From NCBI GenBank assembly GCA_964016885.1, contig OZ024744.1, forward strand, positions 119,660,001 to 119,724,000: a DNA stretch of 64,000 bases. Direction: 5' to 3'. The stretch comes from Eledone cirrhosa. Taxonomy: Eukaryota. Of the stretch, positions 4,171 to 31,724 are shown in pieces. The notes under the pieces were generated by a model. That model saw nothing but the letters and a program-made list of their open reading frames with translations, was not told the origin of the DNA and did not search any database. The first letter of the stretch is position 1, and each line of letters starts with the position of its first letter. The position numbers were made by a program, and so were the translations under genes.

Positions 4171-4173
<3 letters not shown>

Positions 4174-4682
4174 TAAAACATGTCTATAGAATCACAAGAT
4201 AAAATATATACTATTTCCTCTCCCAATTAACATAATTAACTATATAAAAAATCGAATAGACCAGGCTATACGAATGAGGCTTCTATGAAGGAATCTCCGA
4301 CAAATAACCAAAACTAGCACTTCGCGTCGGCCGTAGCGGAGTATTTATCGAATATTTCGACAGCGTAATCGCCTAGATACAGTCAACTAAGCAGAATTAG
4401 GTTTAAAATAAACTAGGAGAAAATAGAATACATTTAAATACCTCTACCATGGTTTCGTCCGTGTTTTGAGTTTTCCAATAATTATGTAATAATTATATAA
4501 ACTCGAGCGCCGGATTCTTCAGGAAGCTCGCTCATATCTAGACATTAAATTTTCCAAAACAATCGCGCCAAGAATTCATTTCAAAATGGCTAAAAATTGT
4601 GACGTAGTCGCGGTCAAGTTGGAAGGGGTGTGGTAGTTGCTTACGACTGGTGGCACTTTTGCTAGAAAGCACGGCACAATAC
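4171..4682 (-). mobile_element. Non-coding interspersed repeat 'M', copy 1 (inverted relative to 6575-7086)
   Basis: Reverse complement of 6575-7086 at roughly 90% identity; outer end tcataaaacatgtctatag abuts (TA)n; class unresolved. Confidence 0.75.
4441..4526 (-). ncRNA. Candidate hammerhead ribozyme with long stem II in repeat M
   Basis: Minus strand: cttc CTGAAGA atccg...gagttt..ataatta-ttaca-taattat..aaactc...cggac GAAA ccatgg TA gagg. Confidence 0.5.
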
Positions 4683-4894
4683 AGCCAAATTTGTATCTCA
4701 ACCTAGTGGGAGATTATTACATATAAAAGTTTACATATATATATACATACACATACATATACGTGTTTTGCAACCGGTCACTTTGTGGCTCAATGAAAAA
4801 TTAATAAATTAAACAATCAGAGCTATATATAATAAAACATGTCTATGTCGGTTGCAAAACACGTATATGCATGTGTATGTATATATATATGTAA

Positions 4895-6479: not shown

Positions 6480-6482
<3 letters not shown>

Positions 6483-6572
6483 CATTTCTGAATTTGTTTA
6501 GCAAGATTCTTTATCTGAAAACGTCTGTTGATACCGATATTGTTATACTTTGGGAGCGTCATGTTGCCAATA
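6480..6572 (-). mobile_element. PLE family A, isolated 3' tail, tail-to-tail with A2 across a short (TA)n
   Basis: Reverse complement of about 6359-6452 with several substitutions. Confidence 0.85.
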
Positions 6573-6574
6573 TT

Positions 6575-7083
6575 GTGTAATGTGCTGTGCTTTCTAGCAA
6601 AAAAGCCACCAGCCGTAAGCAACTACCACACCCCTTCCAACCTGACCGCTACTACGTCACGATTCTTAGCCATTTTGAATGAATTCTTGGCGCGATCACT
6701 TTGGAAAATTTAGTGTCTAGATCAGAGCAAATCTCCTGATGAATCCGATGCTCGAGTTACATAATTATTACATAATTATTGGAAACCTCAAAATACGGAC
6801 GAAACTATGGTAGAGGTATTTAAACGTATTCTATTTTCTCCTAGTTTATTTTACACCTAATTCTGTTTAATTGACTGTATCTGGGCGATTACGCTGTCGA
6901 AATATTCGATAAATATTCCGTTGCGGCCGACGCGAAGGGCTAGTTTCGGTTATTTGTTGGAGATTTCTTCATAGAAACCTCATTCTTATAGCCTGGTCTA
7001 TTCGATTTTTTAAATAGTTAATTATGCTAAGTGGGAGAGGAAATGGTATATATTTTATCTTGTGATTCTATAGACATGTTTTA

Positions 7084-7086
<3 letters not shown>
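6575..7086 (+). mobile_element. Non-coding repeat 'M', copy 2, ending in (TA)n
   Basis: Inverted copy of 4171-4682. Confidence 0.75.
6732..6816 (+). ncRNA. Candidate long-stem-II hammerhead in repeat M copy 2
   Basis: tctc CTGATGA atccg...cggac GAAA ctatgg TA gagg. Confidence 0.45.
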
Positions 7087-7947: not shown

Positions 7948-8234
7948 CATACATATATTTTTTGTATTTTTTGTTCTTATTTATTTATTTAGTTATTCCT
8001 GTTTCTTAACCACTGTCCATATTTATGTGTACATTTTTGAGTGCATATATATCTGTGTATATGTATGTGTATGTATTTATGTTCCAGTCTAGACGCAAAT
8101 ACGCTTATGTGAGAAAGTATCCGTCTACGTACTTTTTAGTATATGCGCGTAGTTGAGTGTGTCTATGTTTACATTCTGGATATTTATATTTTTATATAAG
8201 TAGAAGGGATATTTAATTTGTTGGGAATTCATCT

Positions 8235-9622
8235 AGTGATGAAATGCATATACTTCTAACAGCACGGAAAACATTAATAGAATTCAATAATCATCTCTGG
8301 CCAAGAGCCGATAGAAAAAATAATTTTAATATCACTATGGGATCATCTGACTCGGCGCAAATAAAGGATCTTGTGGGCTTATTTATTAATAATACACTGC
8401 ATAAGAAAATGCCAGAGATGACCGGTGGTTTATATCTTGACGATATGCTGCTTTTAATTAAAAATCATTGTAATTGTGAAATTAATAGGAAAAGAAAATC
8501 CATAATACAATTCTTCAATAATTATAACCATAAGTTAGAAATAGAGAATAACTATAAAATCGTTAACTTCTTAGACGTAACATTAAACCTTAGTACAGGT
8601 CTTTACTGTCCTTTCCATAAAATTAACGAAAAGCTAAATTACGTAAGTTTTAACTCTAATCATCCTAGATCTATCAAGAACACTATTGTCAATAGTGTCC
8701 AACAACGGATTTCACGCATCTCTGCTCATAAAAATATTTTTGATGATAAGGCTGAATATTATAATGAAGCTTTAAATAGAACGGGGAATAAAATTAAATA
8801 CATTGACAACAATAACATGACAAATCACCCTAATAATAATAAACAATTTAACTTAAACTCTAAACCAAACAAAAGATCTAGAACTAGAAATATTATTTCG
8901 TAGCCCCCCCCCCCTCATTCTCTTTAAGCGTTAAAACACCTTTAGCAAATCTATTCTTCAAAGCACTAGACAAATGTTTTCCTAAAGCCCACAGATACCA
9001 CTCAATCTTTAACAGACATACTATAAAACTATCCTACTCTACTACTATGAACATAGCACAGAATATAAATAGAATTAATAATAGAAACTTAAATTTAAAC
9101 CCTAACCAAAATAACCATAATAGCAATAATATTATTTCTAGCAATATCCAATATAACAGTACCGTTCCGAGCAACAACTCGGTAAAATGTAACTGTAGAA
9201 TTAAATCAAATTGCCCTTTACAAAATAAGTGTTTAGATAAAAACGTAGTCTATAAATGCACAGTTAAAACTAGAGATAATATATTTAACTATGTCGGTGC
9301 TACTTCTACAAAATTTAAAGATCGCTGGAATAACCATAATCATTCTTTCAGAAGATCTGATAAAAAAATCTTCTACTTCTCTTTCACATCTTATATGGAA
9401 CTTAAAAAGCAAGAATATAGACTATTCAATATCTTGGAAAACGATTTTAAAGCACTTGCGTACTGAAATATGGCTTTATCAAAATTCTGTAAATTGTGTA
9501 TTGAAGAAATTTTTAATATAATTAACTGCCAAAACTCTATTAATCTCAGGACAGAATTATTTTCTTCTTGCAGACATCGCCAAAATTCTACATTCAGAAC
9601 TATAAATCTTCAAACAATTTAA
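8235..9622 (+). pseudogene. Naiad-type PLE (element C), degraded RT + GIY-YIG; the 3' UTR probably extends to about 10940
   Basis: NITMGSSDSAQIKDLVGL, GGLYLDD, VNFLDVTLNL, SNHPRSI, CNCRIKSNCPLQNKCL..NVVYKC..YVGAT..FKDRW.NH..SF, CKLCIEE, NLRTELFSSCRH. Stops and frameshifts are present. Homologous to the ORF at 18378-21053. Confidence 0.9.
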
Positions 9623-9735
9623 CAATTTAAATTTTTAATATTTTAAATATTTTAATATATTAATATTTCTAAATGGTAATATCTTTAATATTTGTAGTAC
9701 TTTCACCTTTCAGCAAAAATTTCTTTATATATATA

Positions 9736-12811: not shown

Positions 12812-12928
12812 TATGAATAAATTTAGTCCTTCATCAGTGATCTTCCAACCTTCATTGGTATTTCATCGCTTTAAAGACCTTATGCCTCTGGTTGGTGCGG
12901 GCAACGTCTAAAGAAAGTCGTTGCGACT
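12812..12928 (-). repeat. Diverged fragment of repeat S between TA runs
   Basis: tcatcagtga..ccaacc..ggtatttc..ggttggtgcg.gcaacg..aaagtcgttg aligns to the reverse complement of about 3990-4103. Confidence 0.75.
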
Positions 12929-12946
12929 ATATATATATATATATAT

Positions 12947-13085
12947 ATAATAGGAACCAGTAAGACCCCGACAGCTGAGCTCAGCTGTCGGGGTCTTACT
13001 GGTTCCTATTATCCACTCTACTACCTCAAGTATTGAGTACTTTGGTGCGTTATGGTCCACCTGGTTCCTTACCACATTTCCTTCG

Positions 13086-13087
<2 letters not shown>
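12947..13087. mobile_element. Fold-back PLE-like 3' tail containing a perfect 66-bp palindrome (12947-13012)
   Basis: ataataggaaccagtaagaccccgacagctgag|ctcagctgtcggggtcttactggttcctattat; both ends lie in (TA)n; cagctg-TC resembles HHR stem III plus cleavage site. Confidence 0.75.
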
Positions 13088-13161
<74 letters not shown>

Positions 13162-13163
<2 letters not shown>

Positions 13164-14757
13164 ATAATAATAAAATTGAAGACTAAAATCCAAAGAGGGC
13201 TCGATAAGGAAAATATATATCAAATATATAAGAACCGTAGAGCAAATATTTATTAAAATAACAGATTAAAGTTTAAGCAAAGAATCGCTGCTTTCACCCT
13301 TAACGGGATCTTCTGAAACTAACAAAGTCAATCTGTAAACGCAGAACTGGATATTTCAAAAACCGTTGCAACCGGAGGAAGACAGGAAGACGATACTTTG
13401 GTTCGTGGTAACGTTCGCTGGCAAAGAACGGGAAAAAACGAATAATACGTCATTAATAGGAGCGGTGAAAAACAATTACGCGCAAAGACAGAACCACGTT
13501 TAGGTATAAAGGAGGTCGTAGACTAATGTTCTCTTAGGTGGTTCATAGAGACGTTCTCTGGCAATGAACGAAAGAACGAAGATAATAAGTCATATGTGGA
13601 GCGTGGAGAACAATAGCACGCAAAGACAAAACCATGTAAATGGTATAGCAGAAGTTGTAGACTAAAATTCTAACTAGGAGACCAAATGAAATCTCCGCTA
13701 CAGAGTTAAGAACAAAGTAAATAAATACAATACAGAAGTAATAGAAACAAATAAATACATACACGCAAACAGATACGTACATACACAAGCATACGCAAAA
13801 CCTTACCATGGTTATACAAAACCACGTACATATAAATATGTGTGTGTGTGTATGCTTGTGTACAAATAAATAAATAATTATATAAACGCATATAAGTAAA
13901 TAAATACGTATATAACAAGCGCACACACATACCTACAAATAAATACATGAATGTTCGGAGACGTAAGTCAACTAAAACAAGAAGTACACATATACACAGA
14001 CCCACCATACGTACGAACCTGCATACTCACGCAGACGCAAAACTCCCGTATACACATAGCCAAACCCTAAATACCAGAATATGTAAAAATTATACGCCAT
14101 AACAGTCAAATATACGTACGAGAAGGTATACATACCTTCACAAAATATACGGGTAATGCAAATAAGTAAAGGAATAAACAAAACATATACTTAGCTCCCA
14201 CATCAAGACGTAAAATATCCACGTATAGATCGTACTATCCGTTAGGGTATAACGTGGGGCTGTAATACAGGAAAGTTTTGTGCAATTTATGTTTACAAGC
14301 CGAAATTGCCTCAGATTTTTTGTTTAAGATGTGGTCTGTGGCGTAGAGTATTTCCAGGGCCCCAGCGGCGCAGAGGTCACATGGTCTTTTATTTCCGTTA
14401 TACGATCTAGCCCTAGCTAGGATCTCCCAGTGTAACTTATATTGGGTGTGGTTGTCTTTTAGACTCCAGATATAAGCTGAAAGGGACGTCATATTCCTTC
14501 TTAGAGGGTAACGAAAAGAATGAGTATGCATGTAAAGACGCTGCTTGAAACTATTGGCGGTTAACCCTATGTAGGCCCTACGGGACGTGGGTGTTTCAAC
14601 CTTACATTTGTAGACAATGTTACTAGAGAGGCATTTCCCGGATAGGGGGCAATCAGCCCGATTCCCACCATTACATTAGTTTCAGAAGATCCCGTTAAGG
14701 GTGAAAGCAGCGATACTTTACTTAAACTTTAATCTGTTATTTTAATAATAAATAAAT
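13162..14757 (-). mobile_element. Naiad-type PLE element D (GIY-YIG + 3' UTR, minus) with an inverted copy of its 3' tail at 14677-14757
   Basis: 14677-14749 is the reverse complement of about 13249-13322; both ends lie in (TA)n. Confidence 0.85.
14235..14676 (-). pseudogene. GIY-YIG endonuclease fragment of element D
   Basis: CNGGNRADCPLSGKCLSSNIVYKCKV...AYIGLTANSFKQR..HTHSF...TSLSAYIW.LK...CDLC...LNKKSEAISACKH. Confidence 0.88.
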
Positions 14758-14769
14758 ATATATATATAT

Positions 14770-16389
14770 ATTTCGTTTCTGAATTTGTTTAGCAAGATTC
14801 TTTATCTGAAAACGTGTGTTGAAACCGATATTGTTATACTTTGGGAGGGTCATGTTGCCAATAAGAAACACACGCACCAGTCGCTTTCACTTCAATTTAT
14901 TATAAAGTAAATTTATAAATTTAGGAATTTATAAATTTCCGGTTGGTTGGTTGGTTGGTTCCACAACCAGACGATTGTTCATATATTGTCAAAGTTCTTT
15001 CGTCACACATTATGTGACCTCTTCAGTGACTGGGAATTCTTTTCTTTGTTTTTGTGCCTCTCTTTGTTCTGTCCTACGCCATCTTGTTTTTGTGTGTGTT
15101 GTGTGTTTAGTTTGCGCATGTGTTACATCCGGGTGTCTGTGTGTGTTTATATTTGTTTATTTATTTTATTTGTTTATTTACATGTTACTGGTTGGTTGTT
15201 TGTTCTATGTGTGTGTGTGTTTTCATTTTGTCCTTAATTGTAAGTTGTGATGTTGCTATTCCATTCATGCTTTCTATTTAATTTTAGTTGGAGTTCATTT
15301 ATGTTTATTGCCTCTGTGATTTGTCTAAACATTGCGTCTTTTTTGTGTGTAGATTCTATTTTTATTTCTATGTTCTCTAATTTACCCTTATGTTCTATTT
15401 TAGCATGTTGGTAGAGTACAGATGATTCTTTACTATCTTGAAGATCTCGCCAGTGTTCATTTATCAGTTCCCCTATACTACGAGCTGTCTCACCTATGTA
15501 CACTATATTTTTGTCTCTACATTGTCCTTCAGTACATCTTATGCTATATACTACATTTCTAGTTTTTCAGTTAATATGAGGGCTTAGTTTACAGATTATA
15601 CATTTCTTATCTATACAGGGAGGTCTTTGAAAAGGGTATGTATTGCTAATAAGCGTTTTTATGGAGGTACCTGGTCTCTCTACTATCTTAATATTGAGTT
15701 TATGTTTATCTAGGGCCCATCTGAATTTGTAAGCTAATTCACCTCTAGGGGTTGTATCGATGAACATTACACTCTGGTATTTATTGCTATCATACCATGA
15801 GATTATTCTATTAACCTTATTCCTAGTTCTTTCTATTCTATTCTAAAATTTGCTCCTATACAAGGGGCAGGTCCCATTTGTATCATTATTTACCATTTTT
15901 TCCCATTTGGTTCTGGCTCCTCTATATACTCTGATCTTATCTCTCTGATTGTAACCAGAGAACTGCATACGGTGGATGAAGTGATGTATGTGTCTCTCTA
16001 GTTCTTTGGGGTTGCACATGCGGGACACGTTTCTCATCACCCGTACCAAATCCGCAATCAGTCTGTTGATTTTGGTGTGGTCCGAAACAGCTGAGTTTCG
16101 GTGGATCAGATATTTGGAAGTCATGGGTTTGGCATAATGGGAATGGAGGATCTGTTTTTTGTTATTGATAGTATCTAACCAGAGCTCTGTGTCTAGTACT
16201 GGTAATCGATGGTTGGGGTGTTTGCTTGGGTAGTCTATAGTAATTCTAATATTCTGATGGATGGAGTTAGCTATTTGCTAAATGCTTTCCATGGTGTTTT
16301 TCTCTAATTCCCGACTGTTCTCTAGTGGGCGTGTTTTTACTACGATGTTTATATTATCAACGTAGCGGGAGTACGTTATCATTATCAGG
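14770..16389 (-). mobile_element. PLE family A, copy A3 (from the RT YVD region to the 3' end); HHR at 14988-15030
   Basis: ORF fragments 15234-15503, 15567-15767 and 15843-16124 with several stops; 3' end in TA. Confidence 0.92.
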
Positions 16390-17037
16390 TGAGACAGCTC
16401 GTAGTATAGGAGAACAGATAAATGAACACTGGCGAGAGCTTCAAGATAGTAAAGAATCATCTGTACACTACCAACATGCTAAAATAGAACATAAGGGTAA
16501 ATTAGAGAACATAGAAATAAAAATAGAAGCTACACACAGAAAAGACGCAATGTTTAGACAAATCACAGAGGCAATAAACATAAATGAACTCCAACCAAAA
16601 TTAAATAGAAAGCATGAATGGAATAGCAACATCACAACTTACAATTAAGGACAAAATGAAAACACACACACACACATAGAACAAACAACCAACCAGTAAC
16701 ATGTAAATAAACAAATAAATAAACAAATATAAACATCACAGACACCCGAATGTAACACATGCGCAAACTAAACACACAACATACACAAAAACAAGATGGC
16801 GTAGGACAGAACAAAGGAGAGGCACAAAAACAAAGAAAAGAATCCCCAGTCACTGAAGAGGTCACAGAATGTGTGACGAAAGAACTTTGACAATATATGA
16901 ACAATCGTCCGGTTGTGGAACCAACCAACCAACCGGAAATTTATAAATTCCTAAATTTATAAATGTATTATAATAAATTGAAGTGAAAGCGACTGGTGCG
17001 TGTGTTTCTTATTGGCAACATGACCCTCCCAAAGTAT

Positions 17038-17043
<6 letters not shown>
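16387..17043 (+). mobile_element. PLE family A, copy A4, head-to-head with A3; HHR at 16849-16891
   Basis: Starts at aggtgagacagctcg (GETARS) with AGG microhomology at the junction; ends aagtataacaata-(TA)n. Confidence 0.92.
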
Positions 17044-17095
<52 letters not shown>

Positions 17096-17139
17096 AAGTT
17101 AAATAAAAGTCAAATGATTAAAATTTAGCTTCGTTTATT

Positions 17140-17194
17140 ACTGCTATATATATTTCAGTGACAGCCATCTTTGGCTGTGACCTCTTCAGGCAGT
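17140..17194 (-). ncRNA. Minimal type I hammerhead ribozyme, element B left arm
   Basis: actgc CTGAAGA ggtcacagcca-aaga-tggctgtcact GAAA tatata TA gcagt; palindromic stem III. Confidence 0.85.
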
Positions 17195-18377
17195 TTGAAT
17201 TAGTATGGTATAGACAAGTACATATGTTGTTTAGGTGTATGATATTGTCAATACTCTGATATGCCCAGTTCCTTGTTGGGTTGTTAATTCACTGGGGAAC
17301 TGGAGTCATATGAATTCAAACAAACGAATTTTAGTGTCACAGGTCCCCTTCTCCTCTCATTGGTCAGTTATTAGTGTTGTCATTGTTGGAGTTAGCTTAA
17401 AAATTGATAAAATGGTAGAAGGGACAAGGTGTTGAAGGAACAAAATATCAAAAAATGTGTCAAACTTCCCATTGTTCAGTTCTGAGAGCATTCCTCAGTC
17501 AGAAGTCTATAGAATTCTTTCTGGGGTGAGGCTCCCTGTAGTGTTTATGCCTGCTATTGTTCAGTACATTTGGCCTCCACCATTATTTTGGTACTGTTGT
17601 TGTTGTAGTGGTCAGCTTATATCTTGCTGCTGCTAACAATTTAGAAGTATTCAGTTTGTGTTTTCTCTTCATCCCACCCGCCACCACCGTAGTGGTGGCG
17701 GCGGGGGGGGGGGGGTTATTTCATGTATATGAAGAAATATAAGGCAATAAATGAAGAAAACAGAAGATAAATAAATAATATAATAAAATAAAATAATTAA
17801 TATAATTTGTGTAATTTGAAAATAAATAAATAAATAGAGAATAAAGAATAAAGAGTAAATGAGAGATTGGTGAAAAAGTAATGATAATGTATATGGAGAA
17901 GTGAGAAATAATGTAGGATAAAGTGTGTGTGTGTGCTATAACCAATCTCAAGGTCAGAATATGTTGGATAGATTGGTATGATACAAGATGTTAAGATGAG
18001 ATATTCAATGTGTTTGTGTTATAATCTATCTCAACTTAATATAAATATAAGGTTATACAGTGAAGAGGGCAGAAAACAAATAACAAATTAATATAGAGAA
18101 ATCAAGATTTAAGATTGGAACTTTAAAGTCAGAAATCTGGTAAATTAAAAGTGTTTGTGTTATAGATGTTGGCCAGATTATTATGGCTGTGTCCGATTCT
18201 GTCTCTAGGCTATCATGGTGTCTGCTCCGCCTGGGTTGTTCCCTATGGCTTGAGGGGAGTTCACAACCTAGGGTGTTGTAATTGTCCATATAGCTTGAGG
18301 GAGGTCTGGCCGAGAGGTGTTTTCATGTTCTGTAGAAGTCCCTATAGCTTGAAGGGAGTTCACATCTTCTTGTGTTG

Positions 18378-21053
18378 CTACTGTCCATATATTTTGAGAA
18401 AGGTCCCGGCTCTAAGGTGTCTGCATGTCCCGAAGAAGTCGGTTCTGAGGTTTATCAGGCCGCTTCCACCTCTTAGTATCTCGAGGGTCTCGTTCAGGCA
18501 TAGTTTGCATATGCAAGATCCCCCTTTATCGGGTGGTACTTTCCTGATTATGTACCAAGCCAGAGAGTATGGGGTCCTGTCCAGCTTAAGCTTCCAGATC
18601 AGGTCGGAGAGAGCTGTGCTTTTCCTTTTGGCCTCCTTCTTGAATGAATGGCGATGGTTGTACCAGCGGTCCTTAAAGCTCGTTGATGTGGCTCCTATGT
18701 AGAGGTGTTCGGAGTTGGGGGTTTTAACCCTACAACCGTACACTATGTTCTTCTTGAGACATTCATTACCAAGGGGGCATGATTCGGGGTTTCTACAGTT
18801 GCAGAGGGTGGGCGGCCTCTGCGTGCTTAGATTAGGGTTCTCATTATGTGTTACATGTTGGTCTTCCCCCATGCTCGGTGGGGGGTCCTTGGGTCTGTTT
18901 GTGTTTCTTGGGTGGGCTCTGGGTCCCCCCTTCCCTCCTTTCACATGGTTCTGCTGAGTGTTTGTATTGCCATCTTCTGGTTGTGTGTGGTTTTTAAGCC
19001 TACTTCTGTTGATGCTAGCTATGTGTTGGGCCAAATTTCTCGTGGTGGAATACGAAAGCTTCACAGTGTGTCTGTTGAAGATCCTGTGGTATCTGTGGTC
19101 CCTCGGGAAGCATTTGTCAAGTGCTCCAAAGAACAATCGGGCCAAGCTTTTCTTTAGGGCCGCTGAGTAGGGTGGGTTGTACCACGTGATTTGTCGGTGT
19201 CTCCTCCTATATGTGTGGGTTGGGGGCTTCGTGATTTGTTGGAGATTTGTTGGTTTGCTGGTGGTTTCCGCACTGTTGCTTCCCTTTTGGGCTCTATACT
19301 TTCTGTTATCTTCACGGCCCGGATTTGTGGGGTGGTTGTTGTCTGCCCCGGGAGATCCATCGTGGGGTGGTCGCCCGTTTCTCCCCCCACGTGTCCTGCG
19401 GTTGGGGTTGTCCGTCCTGGGGTAGTTAGCATCACGCCTGAGACTGCTACTCATATTGTGCTCCATCTCGTGGTCAAGCGCACTAGTCCCCACTGCCCGT
19501 GTGGTGGTGTCTGGTACATGGTGCCTATTTGATTTTGCTCTGCCTGTATTGTTAGGGTTCGCCCTCCCTCCTCTGGTAACGCGGTTGTGGGTGTCTGTTG
19601 GGCTATCCACCTCCCGGCTTTTCGGACTATATGTTATATTTTGTCCATGTGCCGCCTTCTTTAGAGCTGCGTTGTAATATTCCGCGTGGTTGTTGAATAT
19701 TTCCTTACTTGCGGACAGGCTGGAGATCCTGTCCGAGACACTCTTCACCACTGCCTTGGTTATGGATCTAGGGTGGTTTGATTTGGCGTTAACATATACT
19801 AGTTTCTCGTTGGGCTTGTGGTAGGGGTAGTATTGCTCGGTGTTCAGGTTTAGGGTGGTGTCTAGGAAGTTAACTACCTTCCTATTTGGGTCTATTTCTA
19901 TGCTGAGCCCCTGGTTCTTAAAGAAATGGCGAATACGCCTCCTCATACCCTCCAACATATTGGTGCTGTGGTCATGTACTGTGAATAGAGCATCGTCACG
20001 ATATAATCCGCCGCCCAGGCAGGGGATTTCATCTTTTATCTGCTTCAGCAGGTAGAGCCCAACCAGGTCCGTTACCTGCGCTGAGTCGCTGGAGCCCATC
20101 GTGATGTCAAAGTTATTTGGCCAATCACTCCTGGTCCACAGGTCTCCATCGAAGCGGATTAAGGTCTTTCTTGCGACGTGGATGATGCTCACCTCCTCTC
20201 GGGTTAGGTCCGTATTGGACATCGCTAAAAATAGGGCCTTATTAAGTACTATGGGTGAGATTGAGGAGTAGTAGCTTGCGATGTCCAGTTGTATAAAGCT
20301 GGTCCTACTTTTCTCCTGCAGTATTTTGAACCATTCTATTACTTCTCTCGTGCATGACCATTGCTGTAATTTGGTTTTTTTCCGAAGCTTGGGCAAAATC
20401 CTATCCAGTATTCTTTTACTGACGATCCCTAGGTCAGATCTGGAGGGGGCTATTAGTCTGACAGGGAGGTCGGACTCAAAGTTTGACTTGTGGTCTTTAA
20501 GGGTAATCCGCGGCTCCCTTGGTTGGTATGGGGCCGTCCTGTCCTCTATGCCGATTCTGGATATAATCCTGTAAGCTGTGGCATTGATCTCATCCAGGGT
20601 AAATCCAGGTGTTTTTTTGTAGCACTTCCTCAGTTCCCTGAGGATTAGCTTATTGTACAGTTCAGTGTTCATGTTGTAGAGGTTGTTTGTTTTGTCAGCA
20701 TGGACAAGTATTCCAGTTGTCCCTTTAAGTACTGTAATCCGGTTTCTCAGGTGTCTGAGGTACTCCTGACTTCTGGTTGGGTTTCCGGAGAATTTGAGGT
20801 TGGATATGATGTTAATCATCTCGTTTTCAAACTCCTCCATTAGTCTGTTATGGGGGGGATTCCTCCTTGATCGAAAAAGGTACTCCATGTTTTCTGTGTT
20901 TGTAGTTTTCTGCGTTCCTCTTTCGAAGTGGAACGCCTTCCATCTCATCCTACGGATGAGGGAGTCCGTACTCTTGATGAGATCACTGGTGTATTCTCGT
21001 TTATCCGGTAGGGGGATGTCCTTCAGTGACGCTAAGGTTGCCAGTTTATCCAT
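18378..21053 (-). CDS. Apparently full-length Naiad-type PLE polyprotein (RT + CxC linker + GIY-YIG), 891 aa
   Basis: N-terminal SLKDIPLP..LIRRMRWKAF, ADKTNN, ITLKDHK, LDIASYYSSI, ITMGSSDSAQ, GLYRDD, CNCRNPESCPL..C, IVYGC..LYIGAT..FKDRW.NH..SF, CKLCL.E, NLRTDF..TCRH; no internal stops. Clade assignment is by motif recall. Confidence 0.93.
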   Translation of the reverse strand: MDKLATLASLKDIPLPDKREYTSDLIKSTDSLIRRMRWKAFHFERGTQKTTNTENMEYLFRSRRNPPHNRLMEEFENEMINIISNLKFSGNPTRSQEYLRHLRNRITVLKGTTGILVHADKTNNLYNMNTELYNKLILRELRKCYKKTPGFTLDEINATAYRIISRIGIEDRTAPYQPREPRITLKDHKSNFESDLPVRLIAPSRSDLGIVSKRILDRILPKLRKKTKLQQWSCTREVIEWFKILQEKSRTSFIQLDIASYYSSISPIVLNKALFLAMSNTDLTREEVSIIHVARKTLIRFDGDLWTRSDWPNNFDITMGSSDSAQVTDLVGLYLLKQIKDEIPCLGGGLYRDDALFTVHDHSTNMLEGMRRRIRHFFKNQGLSIEIDPNRKVVNFLDTTLNLNTEQYYPYHKPNEKLVYVNAKSNHPRSITKAVVKSVSDRISSLSASKEIFNNHAEYYNAALKKAAHGQNITYSPKSREVDSPTDTHNRVTRGGRANPNNTGRAKSNRHHVPDTTTRAVGTSALDHEMEHNMSSSLRRDANYPRTDNPNRRTRGGRNGRPPHDGSPGADNNHPTNPGREDNRKYRAQKGSNSAETTSKPTNLQQITKPPTHTYRRRHRQITWYNPPYSAALKKSLARLFFGALDKCFPRDHRYHRIFNRHTVKLSYSTTRNLAQHIASINRSRLKNHTQPEDGNTNTQQNHVKGGKGGPRAHPRNTNRPKDPPPSMGEDQHVTHNENPNLSTQRPPTLCNCRNPESCPLGNECLKKNIVYGCRVKTPNSEHLYIGATSTSFKDRWYNHRHSFKKEAKRKSTALSDLIWKLKLDRTPYSLAWYIIRKVPPDKGGSCICKLCLNETLEILRGGSGLINLRTDFFGTCRHLRAGTFLKIYGQ

Positions 21054-21103
21054 AGTGACTTAGGTCCGCTACTGTTTGAAGCGCTACAAACAACCTCTAC
21101 AAC

Positions 21104-23398
21104 ATGAACACTGAACTGTACAATAAGCTAATCCTCAGGGAACTGAGGAAGTGCTACAAAAAAACACCTGGATTTACCCTGGATGAGATCAATGCCACAG
21201 CTTACAGGATTATATCCAGAATCGGCATAGAGGACAGGACGGCCCCATACCAACCAAGGGAGCCGCGGATTACCCTTAAAGACCACAAGTCAAACTTTGA
21301 GTCCGACCTCCCTGTCAGACTAATAGCCCCCTCCAGATCTGACCTAGGGATCGTCAGTAAAAGAATACTGGATAGGATTTTGCCCAAGCTTCGGAAAAAA
21401 ACCAAATTACAGCAATGGTCATGCACGAGAGAAGTAATAGAATGGTTCAAAATACTGCAGGAGAAAAGTAGGACCAGCTTTATACAACTGGACATCGCAA
21501 GCTACTACTCCTCAATCTCACCCATAGTACTTAATAAGGCCCTATTTTTAGCGATGTCCAATACGGACCTAACCCGAGAGGAGGTGAGCATCATCCACGC
21601 CGCAAGAAAGACCTTAATCCGCTTCGATGGAGACCTGTGGACCAGGAGTGATTGGCCAAATAACTTTGACATCACGATGGGCTCCAGCGACTCAGCGCAG
21701 GTAACGGACCTGGTTGGGCTCTACCTGCTGAAGCAGATAAAAGATGAAATCCCCTGCCTGGGCGGCGGATTATATCGTGACGATGCTCTATTCACAGTAC
21801 ATGACCACAGCACCAATATGTTGGAGGGTATGAGGAGGCGTATTCGCCATTTCTTTAAGAACCAGGGGCTCAGCATAGAAATAGACCCAAATAGGAAGGT
21901 AGTTAACTTCCTAGACACCACACTAAACCTGAACACCGAGCAATACTACCCCTACCACAAGCCCAACGAGAAACTAGTATATGTTAACGCCAAATCAAAC
22001 CACCCTAGATCCATAACCAAGGCAGTGGTGAAGAGTGTCTCGGACAGGATCTCCAGCCTGTCCGCAAGTAAGGAAATATTCAACAACCACGCGGAATATT
22101 ACAACGCAGCTCTAAAGAAGGCGGCACATGGACAAAATATAACATATAGTCCGAAAAGCCGGGAGGTGGATAGCCCAACAGACACCCACAACCGCGTTAC
22201 CAGAGGAGGGAGGGCGAACCCTAACAATACAGGCAGAGCAAAATCAAATAGGCACCATGTACCAGACACCACCACACGGGCAGTGGGGACTAGTGCGCTT
22301 GACCACGAGATGGAGCACAATATGAGTAGCAGTCTCAGGCGTGATGCTAACTACCCCAGGACGGACAACCCCAACCGCAGGACACGTGGGGGGGGAAACG
22401 GGCGACCACCCCACGATGGATCTCCCGGGGCAGACAACAACCACCCCACAAATCCGGGCCGTGAAGATAACAGAAAGTATAGAGCCCAAAAGGGAAGCAA
22501 CAGTGCGGAAACCACCAGCAAACCAACAAATCTCCAACAAATCACGAAGCCCCCAACCCACACATATAGGAGGAGACACCGACAAATCACGTGGTACAAC
22601 CCACCCTACTCAGCGGCCCTAAAGAAAAGCTTGGCCCGATTGTTCTTTGGAGCACTTGACAAATGCTTCCCGAGGGACCACAGATACCACAGGATCTTCA
22701 ACAGACACACTGTGAAGCTTTCGTATTCCACCACGAGAAATTTGGCCCAACACATAGCTAGCATCAACAGAAGTAGGCTTAAAAACCACACACAACCAGA
22801 AGATGGCAATACAAACACTCAGCAGAACCATGTGAAAGGAGGGAAGGGGGGACCCAGAGCCCACCCAAGAAACACAAACAGACCCAAGGACCCCCCACCG
22901 AGCATGGGGGAAGACCAACATGTAACACATAATGAGAACCCTAATCTAAGCACGCAGAGGCCGCCCACCCTCTGCAACTGTAGAAACCCCGAATCATGCC
23001 CCCTTGGTAATGAATGTCTCAAGAAGAACATAGTATACGGTTGTAGGGTTAAAACCCCCAACTCCGAACACCTCTACATAGGAGCCACACCAACGAGCTT
23101 TAAGGACCGCTGGTACAACCATCGCCATTCATTCAAGAAGGAGGCCAAAAGGAAAAGCACAGCTCTCTCCGACCTGATCTGGAAGCTTAAGCTGGACAGG
23201 ACCCCATACTCTCCGGCCTGGTACATAATCAGGAAAGTACCACCCGATAAAGGGGGATCTTGCATATGCAAACTATGCCTGAACGAGACCCTCGAGATAC
23301 TAAGAGGTGGAAGCGGCCTGATAAACCTCAGAACCGACTTCTTCGGGACATGCAGACACCTTAGAGCCGGGACCTTTCTCAAAATATATGGACAGTAG
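21104..23398 (+). CDS. N-terminally truncated copy of the element B RT/GIY-YIG ORF (764 aa, frame open)
   Basis: Matches the left ORF from MNTELYN onward except V>A, R>G, S>P, L>P. Confidence 0.88.
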   Translation: MNTELYNKLILRELRKCYKKTPGFTLDEINATAYRIISRIGIEDRTAPYQPREPRITLKDHKSNFESDLPVRLIAPSRSDLGIVSKRILDRILPKLRKKTKLQQWSCTREVIEWFKILQEKSRTSFIQLDIASYYSSISPIVLNKALFLAMSNTDLTREEVSIIHAARKTLIRFDGDLWTRSDWPNNFDITMGSSDSAQVTDLVGLYLLKQIKDEIPCLGGGLYRDDALFTVHDHSTNMLEGMRRRIRHFFKNQGLSIEIDPNRKVVNFLDTTLNLNTEQYYPYHKPNEKLVYVNAKSNHPRSITKAVVKSVSDRISSLSASKEIFNNHAEYYNAALKKAAHGQNITYSPKSREVDSPTDTHNRVTRGGRANPNNTGRAKSNRHHVPDTTTRAVGTSALDHEMEHNMSSSLRRDANYPRTDNPNRRTRGGGNGRPPHDGSPGADNNHPTNPGREDNRKYRAQKGSNSAETTSKPTNLQQITKPPTHTYRRRHRQITWYNPPYSAALKKSLARLFFGALDKCFPRDHRYHRIFNRHTVKLSYSTTRNLAQHIASINRSRLKNHTQPEDGNTNTQQNHVKGGKGGPRAHPRNTNRPKDPPPSMGEDQHVTHNENPNLSTQRPPTLCNCRNPESCPLGNECLKKNIVYGCRVKTPNSEHLYIGATPTSFKDRWYNHRHSFKKEAKRKSTALSDLIWKLKLDRTPYSPAWYIIRKVPPDKGGSCICKLCLNETLEILRGGSGLINLRTDFFGTCRHLRAGTFLKIYGQ

Positions 23399-24577
23399 CA
23401 ACACAAGATGTGAACTCCCCTCAAGCTATAGGGACTTCTACAGAACATGAAAACACCTCTCGGCCAGACCTCCCTCAAGCTATATGGACAATTACAACAC
23501 CCTAGGTTGTGAACTCCCCTCAAGCCATAGGGAACAACCCAGGCGGAGCAGACACCATGATAGCCTAGAGACAGAATCGGACACAGCCATAATAATCTGG
23601 CCAACATCTATAACACAAACACTTTTAATTTACCAGATTTCTGACTTTAAAGTTCCAATCTTAAATCTTGATTTCTCTATATTAATTTGTTATTTGTTTT
23701 CTGCCCTCTTCACTGTATAACCTTATATTTATATTAAGTTGAGATAGATTATAACACAAACACATTGAATATCTCATCTTAACATCTTGTATCATACCAA
23801 TCTATCCAACATATTCTGACCTTGAGATTGGTTATAGCACACACACACACTTTATCCTACATTATTTCTCACTTCTCCATATACATTATCATTACTTTTT
23901 CACCAATCTCTCATTTACTCTTTATTCTTTATTCTCTATTTATTTATTTATTTTCAAATTACACAAATTATATTAATTATTTTATTTTATTATATTATTT
24001 ATTTATCTTCTGTTTTCTTCATTTATTGCCTTATATTTCTTCATATACATGAAATAACCCCCCCCCCCCGCCACCACCACTACGGTGGTGGCGGGTGGGA
24101 TGAAGAGAAAACACAAACTGAATACTTCTAAATTGTTAGCAGCAGCAAGATATAAGCTGACCACTACAACAACAACAGTACCAAAATAATGGTGGAGGCC
24201 AAATGTACTGAACAATAGCAGGCATAAACACTACAGGGAGCCTCACCCCAGAAAGAATTCTATAGACTTCTGACTGAGGAATGCTCTCAGAACTGAACAA
24301 TGGGAAGTTTGACACATTTTTTGATATTTTGTTCCTTCAACACCTTGTCCCTTCTACCATTTTATCAATTTTTAAGCTAACTCCAACAATGACAACACTA
24401 ATAACTGACCAATGAGAGGAGAAGGGGACCTGTGACACTAAAATTCGTTTGTTTGAATTCATATGACTCCAGTTCCCCAGTGAATTAACAACCCAACAAG
24501 GAACTGGGCATATCAGAGTATTGACAATATCATACACCTAAACAACATATGTACTTGTCTATACCATACTAATTCAA

Positions 24578-24632
24578 ACTGCCTGAAGAGGTCACAGCCA
24601 AAGATGGCTGTCACTGAAATATATATAGCAGT
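24578..24632 (+). ncRNA. Minimal type I hammerhead ribozyme, element B right arm
   Basis: actgc CTGAAGA ggtcacagcca aaga tggctgtcact GAAA tatata TA gcagt followed by AATAAA. Confidence 0.85.
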
Positions 24633-24773
24633 AATAAACGAAGCTAAATTTTAATCATTTGACTTTTATTTAACTTTATTTTACACTACTCCGGAGTAAC
24701 CAAACCAACCTGCGCACTTCGTCGAGTGCTCCAGCCTGCATACTGAGGTGTTGGTATACAACCAACATAAACT

Positions 24774-24866
<93 letters not shown>

Positions 24867-26502: not shown

Positions 26503-26636
26503 GTTGATATATACTTGATAATTGTATAATTTATTTATATATATATATGTATATATGTGTAAATGAAGTAATTCCGTCGGAAAGGTCCAGGAAAAAAGTG
26601 CTTAATAGTTATCTAATAAACAACATAAGGTAATTA

Positions 26637-26699
26637 TTTTCATTTACCAGTGGTTTCTTGAAAGCAAACAAATTTTGCCTTCAATCATCAGAATGAAAA
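26637..26699 (-). ncRNA. Intact minimal type I hammerhead ribozyme (family E)
   Basis: ttttcatt CTGATGA ttgaaggcaaa-atttg-tttgctttcaa GAAA ccactgg TA aatgaaaa; 8-bp stem I, 11-bp stem II. An inverted tail copy lies at 26729-26772. Confidence 0.85.
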
Positions 26700-27290
26700 A
26701 ATCCTGGTGTATTTATTGTCAATAAATATGGTAAATGAAAATAATTACCATATGTTATTTATTACATAACTATATATATATATATACATATATACAAATA
26801 TATATATATATATATACACACACATACATATACATAGACAAATATCTCTATACATACACGCTCACATATATACATATATATACATATACACATATATGTG
26901 TATATATATACATACATACACATATATATATCCACTCAAGCACATACAAGCATTTGTAAACATACATACCCACATCTGCCTATGTACGCACGTATACACA
27001 GACATACAAAAGTTCAGACACACGCGCGCAAACTTGCGGTTAAGTGTGCACATAGCCGTAATCACACGTATAGGCATGATACTACATATATACAATTACA
27101 AATGACTTCACATTGGCAGGTAGTTAAGGGAACAGATATAAATAAAATTTAAAAAAATAAAAAAATAATGAATAACAAAAAAAAAAAAATAAAAAATAAA
27201 ATAAAAGCATAAATGGACGTGTTGACAACGAAAGGTGGGGGGAGGGATTAATAAATAAATATATAAATATATATACAAACATACGTATAA

Positions 27291-29187: not shown

Positions 29188-29373
<186 letters not shown>

Positions 29374-29398
29374 GTATATATACATATACATATATTTT

Positions 29399-30715
29399 TT
29401 AGCCAGAATACTCAAACCCATCTTAGACACCTTGCCGGGACACGTTAACAGCTCCGAGGAGGTGTTGAAGCGCCTGCATCAAATGGATCCCGACACCAGA
29501 AGGAATAACAGATATGCCTTCAGCCTTGATGTAGTCGCTCTCTACACCTCGGTCCCGGCACTCTCCGCCGTCAATATACTGATGGAACGCGTCCAATCCA
29601 CCGACTTACACTGCTTCGGGCTCACCACCACTGACATCCACCAACTCCTATCCATCGTCGTCGACAACACCTACTTCGGATTCCTTGACCAAACATACCA
29701 ACAAACTTCGGGACTGCCCATGGGATCAAGCCTGTCGGGTGTGCTAGCGATCTCTTACATGGACAACCTCGAACGCAAGGCACTCAACGCCTGCCACCCC
29801 AACGCCGTAGCCTTTTTCTCAAGGTACGTGGACGATATCCTCATCCTCACATCTTCCCAAGACACGGCGAACAGAATCTATGAGACGTTCAACAACACGG
29901 ACGAGAACATTGACTTCAGTGTTGAACACCCCAACGAAGACGGGTCACTTGCCCTCCTCGACTTCCGAATCAACATCACGGAACAGGGAAGGATCCACTG
30001 CAACTTCTACCGAAAGGCAGCCTGCAGGGACCTGTTCGTTCACTACAAGTCGGCCCTCCCTAACAGTGCCAAAAGAGGATACATCACGAACGAGATCGCG
30101 CGAATCAAAAACAGATGCAATGATCCCGCGAGTGGTGTCACTCATACCAAGCGATTCCTCGAGGTGCTGGAGACGAACGGGTACCCTACCTCGATCACAG
30201 ACAGAATAGGAGACACCAGACACAAGAGACAGAGAGGCACCCAAGGCAAGTGCTTCCTTAAAATTCCACATCTGGGCGAGAATACCACCAACGCTATCCG
30301 CAAGGCTATACAGAGGGAGGGCCTCGACATCCACCTGGCCCACTCGGGCCCCTCCCTGCGAAGATGCCTCTCCAAGAAACCCGGGAAATCTACTGACGCA
30401 TGCTCCCTCAGAGACTGCCCGATACGCCATGCGAACTGTTGCCTACGCACATACGTCGTGTATGAATGTGACAGGTGCAACCAATACTACATAGGTAGCA
30501 CAATCCGACCTTTGCACATCCGGATCAAGGAACACACTAAAACCAGGGCCTCGTCTTTCCGGAAACACATAGACAAATGCGGAAACAAAGACGGAAGGCC
30601 CATTGTCACAATTCTAGCGACTGAAAGAAACGTCGGCACGTTACGTATCAAGGAAGCACTTTTTATCAAACGCCTGGCACCGCAAATAAACAACCGATTA
30701 GAGAGAAGCGAAATG
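29399..30715 (+). pseudogene. PLE family 1b, RT + GIY-YIG, 5'-truncated, homologous to 263-1798
   Basis: [56 protein letters not shown]. Two residues are missing after VVY relative to 1a. The ORF-track extension to 31147 reads through CA-rich UTR. Confidence 0.92.
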
Positions 30716-31087
30716 AGATGTAGCAACACACAACACACGCACACACAAACGAGACAACTACACACACACACAGTAGCATTCCACCATACGAACATACTAC
30801 ACTGCCAATACAGAGGAACAAGGCAACTACACTCGCACACACACACACACTCAAGCGAGACAACAACACACGCACACACGCACACAGTAACATTTAACAA
30901 ACAGGCAGAGAATGGACTGACAGCTAGCGCCACCCCACTCCCTCATTCGGCCGCTGACATCTGCCCGACCGACCCCATTTCACGCGCACGCGCGCTCTGC
31001 CGAATACCTCAGATATTCAAAACAACAAACAGCGGAGGACGCGTTTCGCCACCTGCCCGACAGACAACCTTTACCCCGGAAAAAAAC

Positions 31088-31123
31088 CCCCAGTTGATGG
31101 ATGTGAATCCGAAATATATAGGG
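31088..31123 (+). ncRNA. Degenerate hammerhead in the family 1b 3' UTR
   Basis: ccc CAGTTGA t ggat-gtga-atcc GAAA tata TA ggg; two core mismatches to CTGATGA. Confidence 0.5.
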
Positions 31124-31724
31124 ACTATTAAATCTCTCCCAAGGTAACTCTCTCTTGTGTTGTTACTTTTATTTTATCCTTTATACTCTTCCCTTCTTTC
31201 TTCTACACATTTACACATCTTTACACACCACGCATCTCAACGTACACCCACTTACATCTCTCTTTCCACCACCGAATCTTGTTACCCGGAGATTTACCCA
31301 TCTGCGTTGTCGAGGCTTCCAAACGACTTAAAGATATTTATTTATTATTCCACAATGCTTCAAGCAAACTTCAATACTCTCTTATTATATACATATATAT
31401 AAATATATACATATACATATATATAAATACACATATACATATATATATACTTATACATATATACATATACATATATACATATACATATATACATATACAT
31501 ATATATATACATATATATATACATATATATACATATACATATACATATACATATCTACATATACATATACATATATAGACATATTTACATATATATTTAT
31601 ATATACATATACATATACATATAAATATATACATATACATATATATAAATATATACTATTACATATATATATAAATATATACATATACATATATATAAAT
31701 ATTTGCACACACACACACACACAC

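Follow-up and report, generated by a model that had tools for sequence, protein, structure and literature searches.

Head-to-Head Penelope-Like Elements Between (TA)n Tracts of Eledone cirrhosa Join a Short and a Tailed 3′ End

The window analyzed here is a stretch of 64,000 nucleotides from the 3.0-Gb genome of Eledone cirrhosa (contig OZ024744.1, region 119660001-119724000). At positions 12928-24851 it holds four head-to-head units of Penelope-like elements (PLEs) with (TA)n tracts between them, and self-comparison together with reading of the array confirmed the order and coordinates of the four inverted pairs that an earlier note on this DNA had claimed. In all four units, one arm ends at a short site (S) directly against TA, and its partner continues for 56-97 nt through a tail to a second site (T), which is again followed by TA. 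Throughout the genome, 99 of 102 called pairs consist of one S and one T arm, and the two arms of a pair stem from the same source. Judged from sequence, each unit is probably one PLE insertion of two head-to-head arms, with twin priming as the likely route. The layout itself is known, and the families are new members of a known PLE type. New are the counts and tests, which make twin priming from a single source more likely than fold-back or independently inserted arms.

Layout of the Array and Its Two Kinds of 3′ End

The array comprises the following features (window positions and strand):

12928..12949, (TA)n target tract
12947..12979, minus strand, family E short-end (S) arm, 33 bp; 33/33 match to the right arm, same end in genome copies
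12980..13087, plus strand, family E tailed (T) arm; tail at about 13013-13087 (75 nt)
13087..13160, (TA)n tract common to E and D
13161..14675, minus strand, family D tailed arm, 5′-truncated; tail at about 13161-13245 (84 nt)
14235-14675, within the D tailed arm, family D endonuclease fragment with CxCx5C linker
14676..14755, plus strand, family D short-end arm with a variant hammerhead core (read by eye); (AAAT)n, then TA at its end
14756..14771, (TA)n tract common to D and A
14772..16381, minus strand, family A tailed arm (A3); tail 14772-14827 (56 nt); CX4CxxC linker
16387..17042, plus strand, family A short-end arm (A4)
17042..17090, (TA)n tract common to A and B
17091..21085, minus strand, family B short-end arm, longer than its partner by 395 nt at the 5′ end; junction blunt
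18378..21053, minus strand, intact 891-aa open reading frame (ORF) inside the family B left arm; Hydra-type reverse transcriptase (RT) and GIY-YIG-like
21086..24778, plus strand, family B tailed arm; tail at about 24682-24778
24577..24633, plus strand, minimal hammerhead-like motif (CTGAAGA, stem II hairpin, GAAA) in the B pseudo-long terminal repeat (pseudo-LTR); mirrored in the left arm
24778..24851, (TA)n target tract

The arms of a unit match each other over 33 bp in E (100%), 73 bp in D (71 matches and 2 mismatches, 97%), 656 aligned bases in A (642 matches, 14 mismatches and 15 gap columns, 98%) and 3.6 kb in B (3588 matches and 9 mismatches, 99.7%). The A3/A4 junction carries a short duplication and AGG microhomology. 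The tail measures 56 nt in A, 75 nt in E, 84 nt in D and about 97 nt in B and is absent from the partner arm. The earlier note had described two copies of one 3′ end facing outward, with truncated 5′ ends joined in the middle. The head-to-head layout stands, whereas a shared 3′ end is contradicted by the asymmetry of S and T, the decisive feature that had been missed. Two further pairs had been proposed. That at 26605-26772 is a family G pair (about 26560-26772) with the same S and T layout and a tail on one arm only. A6/A7 does have a head-to-head junction (35094/35099), whereas its outer ends are not TA-primed 3′ ends on either side.

The B tail is the start of the tandem unit's 5′ untranslated region (UTR) and lies directly upstream of the ORF leader in 29/29 other near-full-length B loci, and in L122 and L148, two tandem copies, the E tail leads on into the ORF. 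Hence, from its position ahead of the ORF in tandem copies, the tail is the one known from PLEs. The units show an inverted 5′-truncated copy, a tail at one end and, as this tail, the sequence that follows the upstream pseudo-LTR, as does the canonical PLE insertion unit.

One Short and One Tailed Arm per Pair Across the Genome

Exact end patterns were counted 3,343 times for family B (1,557 S and 1,786 T, in roughly equal shares), 25,932 times for A, 29,181 times for D and 323 times for E, far above chance, as reversed control patterns gave no match. For alignment, loci were taken in coordinate order (115 for B and 30 each for A, D, and E). In this alignment set, one S arm was paired with one T arm in 62/64 pairs of B, 12/12 of A, 7/7 of D and 18/19 of E; 57 B, 10 A, 26 D and 9 E arms were unpaired, some because they are in tandem or extend past the fetched DNA. 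Coordinates alone give the same picture. In family A, S and T ends are about equally frequent (49 and 51 of the first 100), and 24 of the 26 head-to-head pairs among them are S+T (p = 5e-6). For family B, 91 S and 100 T ends from the first 169 Mb of contig C1 form 49 S+T, four T+T and one S+S pairs, with 81 ends left without an exact-match partner. Among 100 ends of family D, neighbors are head-to-head 19 times, tail-to-tail twice and in the same direction once.

The earlier note had proposed to count how many insertions are inverted pairs. By eye, 72 of 115 B insertions between 1 and 152 Mb of C1 are two-armed (65 overlapping, seven with a tail-only partner), 34 are single-armed and nine are unclear. 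Because pairs have two chances of being detected, we estimate that the true two-armed share is nearer 60%. The near-strict coupling of S and T, together with the same-source comparison below, constrains the open mechanism and gives the analysis its value.

Source, Reach, and Junctions of the Arms

In family B, where the set includes some loci chosen by identity, divergence within pairs is lower than between pairs in 53/65 cases (0.63% vs. 1.63%, p = 6e-8), and in family A this holds for 13/15 pairs (3.2% vs. 5.5%, p = 0.007). The window arms A3 and A4 are 2.1% divergent, each being more distant from all other arms in the comparison, and only 10 of 195 differences between B arms are variants present in other arms. 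Arms of different subfamilies or ages, which the earlier note had named as evidence against a joint origin, were thus not what we found: the nearest relative of an arm tends to be its partner and not another copy.

The 5′ reach was compared in 62 B pairs. The S arm extends further in 16 and the T arm in 14, both are equal in 25, and the partner is tail-only in seven. In 23 of the 62, the tail-less arm holds sequence that is absent from the tailed arm. Longer S arms at first seemed to prevail (21 vs. 10 of 48), but this was gone in the coordinate-ordered sample (16 vs. 14) and was dropped. Inserted bases were found at 20 of the 62 junctions, and 22 of the other 42 show microhomology of at least 3 nt, compared with about 6% expected.

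Arm 5′ ends cluster: 43/185 in B lie 220-225 nt upstream of S, and 37/47 in E lie at 53-69 nt. These clusters adjoin TCA or TTAG motifs that we take to be initiator-like and, in E, presumably also a TATA-like box. On the simplest reading, the clustered ends likely mark the 5′ end of the transcript. Apart from these clusters, the start points of three independent tailed B arms (window 21086, L215, and L274) fall into a span of 8 nt (body positions 389-396), which might be a hot spot for internal stops or for joining. The locus L211 holds one inverted junction (3703 joined to 76) two times, and L042 carries it as well, which shows that an existing pair was secondarily duplicated.

Twin Priming and Its Alternatives

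In the scheme that we favor, both strands of a (TA)n tract would be cut by the endonuclease of the element. Reverse transcription would then be primed from either nicked 3′ end, with RNA of the same source copy as template and a separate fixed start site for each end; the order of the two primings and the use of one RNA instead of two would be assumptions of the scheme. The two start sites would bracket the tail, in B and E the start of the next tandem unit's 5′ UTR or ORF. Each cDNA would terminate on its own, the two 3′ ends would be linked via short microhomology or a few inserted bases, and a failed second priming would leave a single arm joined to TA, as might be the case for the roughly 30% in B. 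Many short palindromic inserts end 50-225 nt upstream of S, in each family at one specific point that is likely the transcript 5′ end. The earlier suggestion that double-ended priming is a default mode is thereby supported in the sense of a common mode, given the two-armed share in B, the same source of both arms and the extra S sequence in 23/62 pairs. It needs to be corrected in one point, as each of the two primers would have a fixed site of its own.

Several observations weigh against this scheme. Arms of the same source also fit fold-back copying or later gene conversion, and 39/134 shared B variants are private to one pair. Deletions in the center of a palindrome could mimic pairs in which S reaches further. 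The junction overlaps were derived from BLAST, which inflates microhomology at arm ends within natural hairpins. Of 22 pseudo-LTRs upstream of near-full-length B copies, not one ends at the proposed transcript start, and 11 extend beyond it. A partner arm is missing from about 30% of B insertions and from a larger share of D ends. Finally, the window's own junctions are bridged by no read or contig among the short-read records listed.

Fold-back self-priming is the alternative that survives best, and we regard it as unlikely. Here, the tailed cDNA would snap back and copy itself, the endonuclease would resolve the second end at S, and later deletions would trim the center of the palindrome. 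Self-priming has been proposed from junction palindromes in a passage of PMC3846280, and endonuclease-mediated resolution has been suggested for the tail in one of PMC8557442. Variants common to both arms are compatible with it, as are the nearly equal 5′ ends of 25/62 B and 18/18 E pairs, often on short palindromes. However, fold-back predicts that the S arm lies within the T arm, which is violated in 23/62 B, 4/12 A and 4/7 D pairs, among them the B unit of the window with its longer S arm and many pairs below 250 bp. Simple fold-back of a tailed cDNA thus fails in these 23 B pairs unless deletions followed. Moreover, pairs with further-reaching S and T arms are balanced.

A spread of the short palindromic units as non-autonomous elements, copied as finished pairs from few masters, is still less probable. 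Some B junctions do recur exactly (a 423-bp spacing five times), and the 43 clustered B arm ends fall within a 6-nt span, but most junctions vary between loci, long ORF-bearing pairs obey the same rule, and the recurring junctions lie on self-complementary ATAT. That the two arms inserted independently and came together in a single TA tract is, in our view, very improbable. TA tracts do gather several elements, and a few arms are joined to other families (L194 and window 6481-7085). Yet most inner junctions lack TA, the arms are each other's close relatives, and S+S and T+T, expected in half of the pairs, were seen in 3/102. The S+T rule thus refutes independent insertions unless the choice of end depends on the neighbor. 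An artefact of assembly or library (palindromic chimeras), which the unbridged window junctions would allow, is the least credible reading, since arms differ by substitutions and have fixed, family-specific and unequal ends, raw restriction-site-associated DNA (RAD) reads of two other samples show TA immediately next to D and A short ends (1,690-1,935 reads each), and inverted joints of D were also present in reads and contigs.

Twin priming might extend beyond these families. Tentatively, and as a reading that we consider possible but not yet the better bet, PLE integration as such would be coupled asymmetric twin priming, conserved from Hydra to Neptune-type elements. One complex would prime both nicked target strands, each from its own fixed site, with the two sites bracketing the tail of one RNA, every complete insertion would be S+T, second-strand synthesis as in long interspersed nuclear elements (LINEs) would be bypassed, and run-off at the transcript 5′ end would mass-produce palindromes resembling miniature inverted-repeat transposable elements (MITEs).

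(TA)n Tracts as Targets

Outer ends are flanked by TA or TC in 195/198 cases over all families (alignment set). For B the figure is 122/124, in line with the (TA)n targets of the Hydra clade. A target-site duplication would be hidden in (TA)n; in a few loci such as L193, interruptions are repeated on both flanks. The earlier note had based double priming on the self-complementarity of TA. This is not required, because rotifer PLEs, according to a passage of PMC3846280, show the same layout with ordinary target-site duplications.

The tracts had also been proposed to act as a growing landing pad. Each insertion does leave TA on both sides, and a second end lies across the TA tract from a known end in 30/257 cases vs. 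16.8 expected after length matching (about 1.8-fold, p = 0.002), an excess that is driven by B. The effect is nevertheless weak. As baseline, 40 evenly spaced 10-kb regions contain 308 TA tracts, 32 of which abut an end of these families (36/616 sides). By family, second ends were found in 3/31 cases for A, 4/38 for E, 0/33 for D and 23/155 for B, compared with 36/616 in random DNA, and a strong landing-pad effect was rejected. At roughly 0.12 for each step, tens of thousands of insertions would be expected to yield tens of chains of four units per genome. The nest as such is nothing special and is best read as a pile-up of TA-seeking insertions, of a kind that is rare yet to be expected.

About a quarter of B tailed ends carry pure (TC)4-27 between element and TA tract (e.g., L063, L228, and L256), and D short ends repeat AAAT in 4/43. 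Slippage at RT initiation could account for both. At least four TC units occur in 427 B tail ends vs. none or one in 1,237, on several haplotypes, and in 20 pairs that were inspected, the S side had no copy of the TC run beside its TA tract. Telomerase-like repeat addition is not claimed: at least four GA units occur in 49/235 ordinary GA-flanked TA runs (13/31 in random DNA) vs. 20/57 B ends. By this control, the TC runs are not separable from microsatellite drift.

Family Assignment

The earlier note had called the four sequences unrelated. In tblastn searches, B matches E (40-42% aa) and D (42%) and gives no match to A. B, D, and E are related Hydra-type PLEs by their sequence motifs, with D and E placed by motifs and their 40-42% identity to B. 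The 891-aa protein of B has RWK at 39, DKT (in place of DKG) at 122, YRDD, a CxCX5C linker (CNCRNPESC) at 753, IVY..YIG at 772 with one Cys inside and without CCHH, CxxC (CKLC) at 851, CxH (CRH) at 879, and N/R/T-rich inserts. Pfam assigned no family to this protein and returned RVT_1 only in two other fragments of the window. E shows RWR and DKT, and D shows CxCX5C, which is degenerate in the window copy and intact in 7/7 other matches. Family A is classed as a Neptune/Nematis-type PLE from its linker (CIDKKCITC, which fits the CX2-5CxxC pattern of these clades) and CCHH, the latter read by eye from two Cys between VVY and YIG and a downstream His pair.

The hammerhead motif expected of the Hydra clade is predicted in B from core and stem II at 24577-24633. 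Upstream of S, A and B have hammerhead-like cores, and D and E have, by eye, a variant form. In Rfam, no match at gathering score and no hammerhead family was found among the matches listed (150 of 161). Six of 22 near-full-length B copies (L050-L052, L054, L058, and L060) start at most about 15 nt from the predicted hammerhead cut (placed by eye), as if from self-cleaved RNA.

Relation to Known Systems

In L1 twin priming, the second target strand primes a second cDNA, and the cDNAs join by microhomology; the internal site used by the second primer varies, and no duplication of the 3′ end is known. The seven tail-only B partners resemble its non-overlapping product. In contrast, both sites are fixed here and the arms usually overlap.

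For PLEs, earlier work (passages of PMC3846280, PMC8557442, and PMC11167929) already describes inverted pairs, tails carried by one arm, targeting of TA, priming on both strands and the use of two start sites by the RT. According to PMC3846280, in the part seen, head-to-head is the most frequent arrangement, the tail is optional on one inverted pseudo-LTR, and self-priming is proposed; PMC8557442, likewise in part, describes an inverted truncated copy with the tail often at one end and a TA bias, leaving the origin of inverted structures and tails open. The canonical endonuclease-bearing unit in these passages (Pen2a_Av in PMC3846280; PMC8557442) shares with ours 5′-truncated head-to-head copies, a one-end tail, junction palindromes and partial tandems that give pseudo-LTRs. 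It differs in tail length (30-40 nt vs. 56-97 nt here), and its tail is called optional and goes uncounted in these passages, whereas exactly one tail was present in 99/102 pairs here.

The Hydra clade is characterized in a passage of PMC8557442 by RWK, DKT, CxCX5C, CxxC and CxH without CCHH, (TA)n targets, a hammerhead and a size generally below 3 kb. Family B agrees in all these motifs and in its targets, E in RWR and DKT, and D in CxCX5C. In contrast, the B unit is about 4.1 kb long, where the paper gives a tendency and not a strict criterion, its N/R/T-rich ORF inserts resemble those of A. vaga Penelope, and ends reach thousands to tens of thousands here. In vitro, Poseidon_Ac cleaves and extends both strands of AT-rich targets from two RT start sites that bracket the tail, with a predicted dimer (PMC11167929, passages). 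Those passages report no difference in start site between strands and tie no insertion to one site of each kind, whereas our genome data imply coupling of S and T, in other clades. Passages of a retrozyme preprint, of the octopus repeat paper and of an L1 preprint contain nothing further on this matter. We found no paper that joins Penelope, head-to-head and twin priming; subscription papers, older reviews and the supplements of PMC8557442 and PMC11167929 lay outside the search and may hold a one-tail count or model.

The counts lead to a sharp prediction, namely one S start and one T start per event from the same source. They constrain a mechanism that is stated to be open in PMC8557442 and partly answered in vitro by PMC11167929, as far as the passages go. 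Family B, which is young and has an intact ORF and exactly mapped start sites, provides material for testing this prediction. Annotation is affected as well, because the small palindromes flanked by TA, which number tens of thousands in such genomes, represent ends of retroelements and not MITEs.

Further Observations

At window 6481-7085, a tailed end of family A (92 bp) meets an arm of family F head-to-head, and F is also inverted at 4172-4683. At L194, a B tailed arm is joined to the 5′ end of a full-length A. Both cases are either cross-family joins or nested insertions. A decayed Hydra-type copy at 8217-9720 (40-69% aa to B) ends in TA, and two copies of another RT and GIY-YIG family lie at 626-1785 and 29372-31147. 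A direct duplication of about 100 bp (18240-18440 and 23336-23533, 75% alike) spans the B stop codon and is present in all aligned long B copies. Directly after a 200-N gap, a 24-kb satellite array with a period of about 64 bp and units about 90% identical fills window positions 40001-64000.

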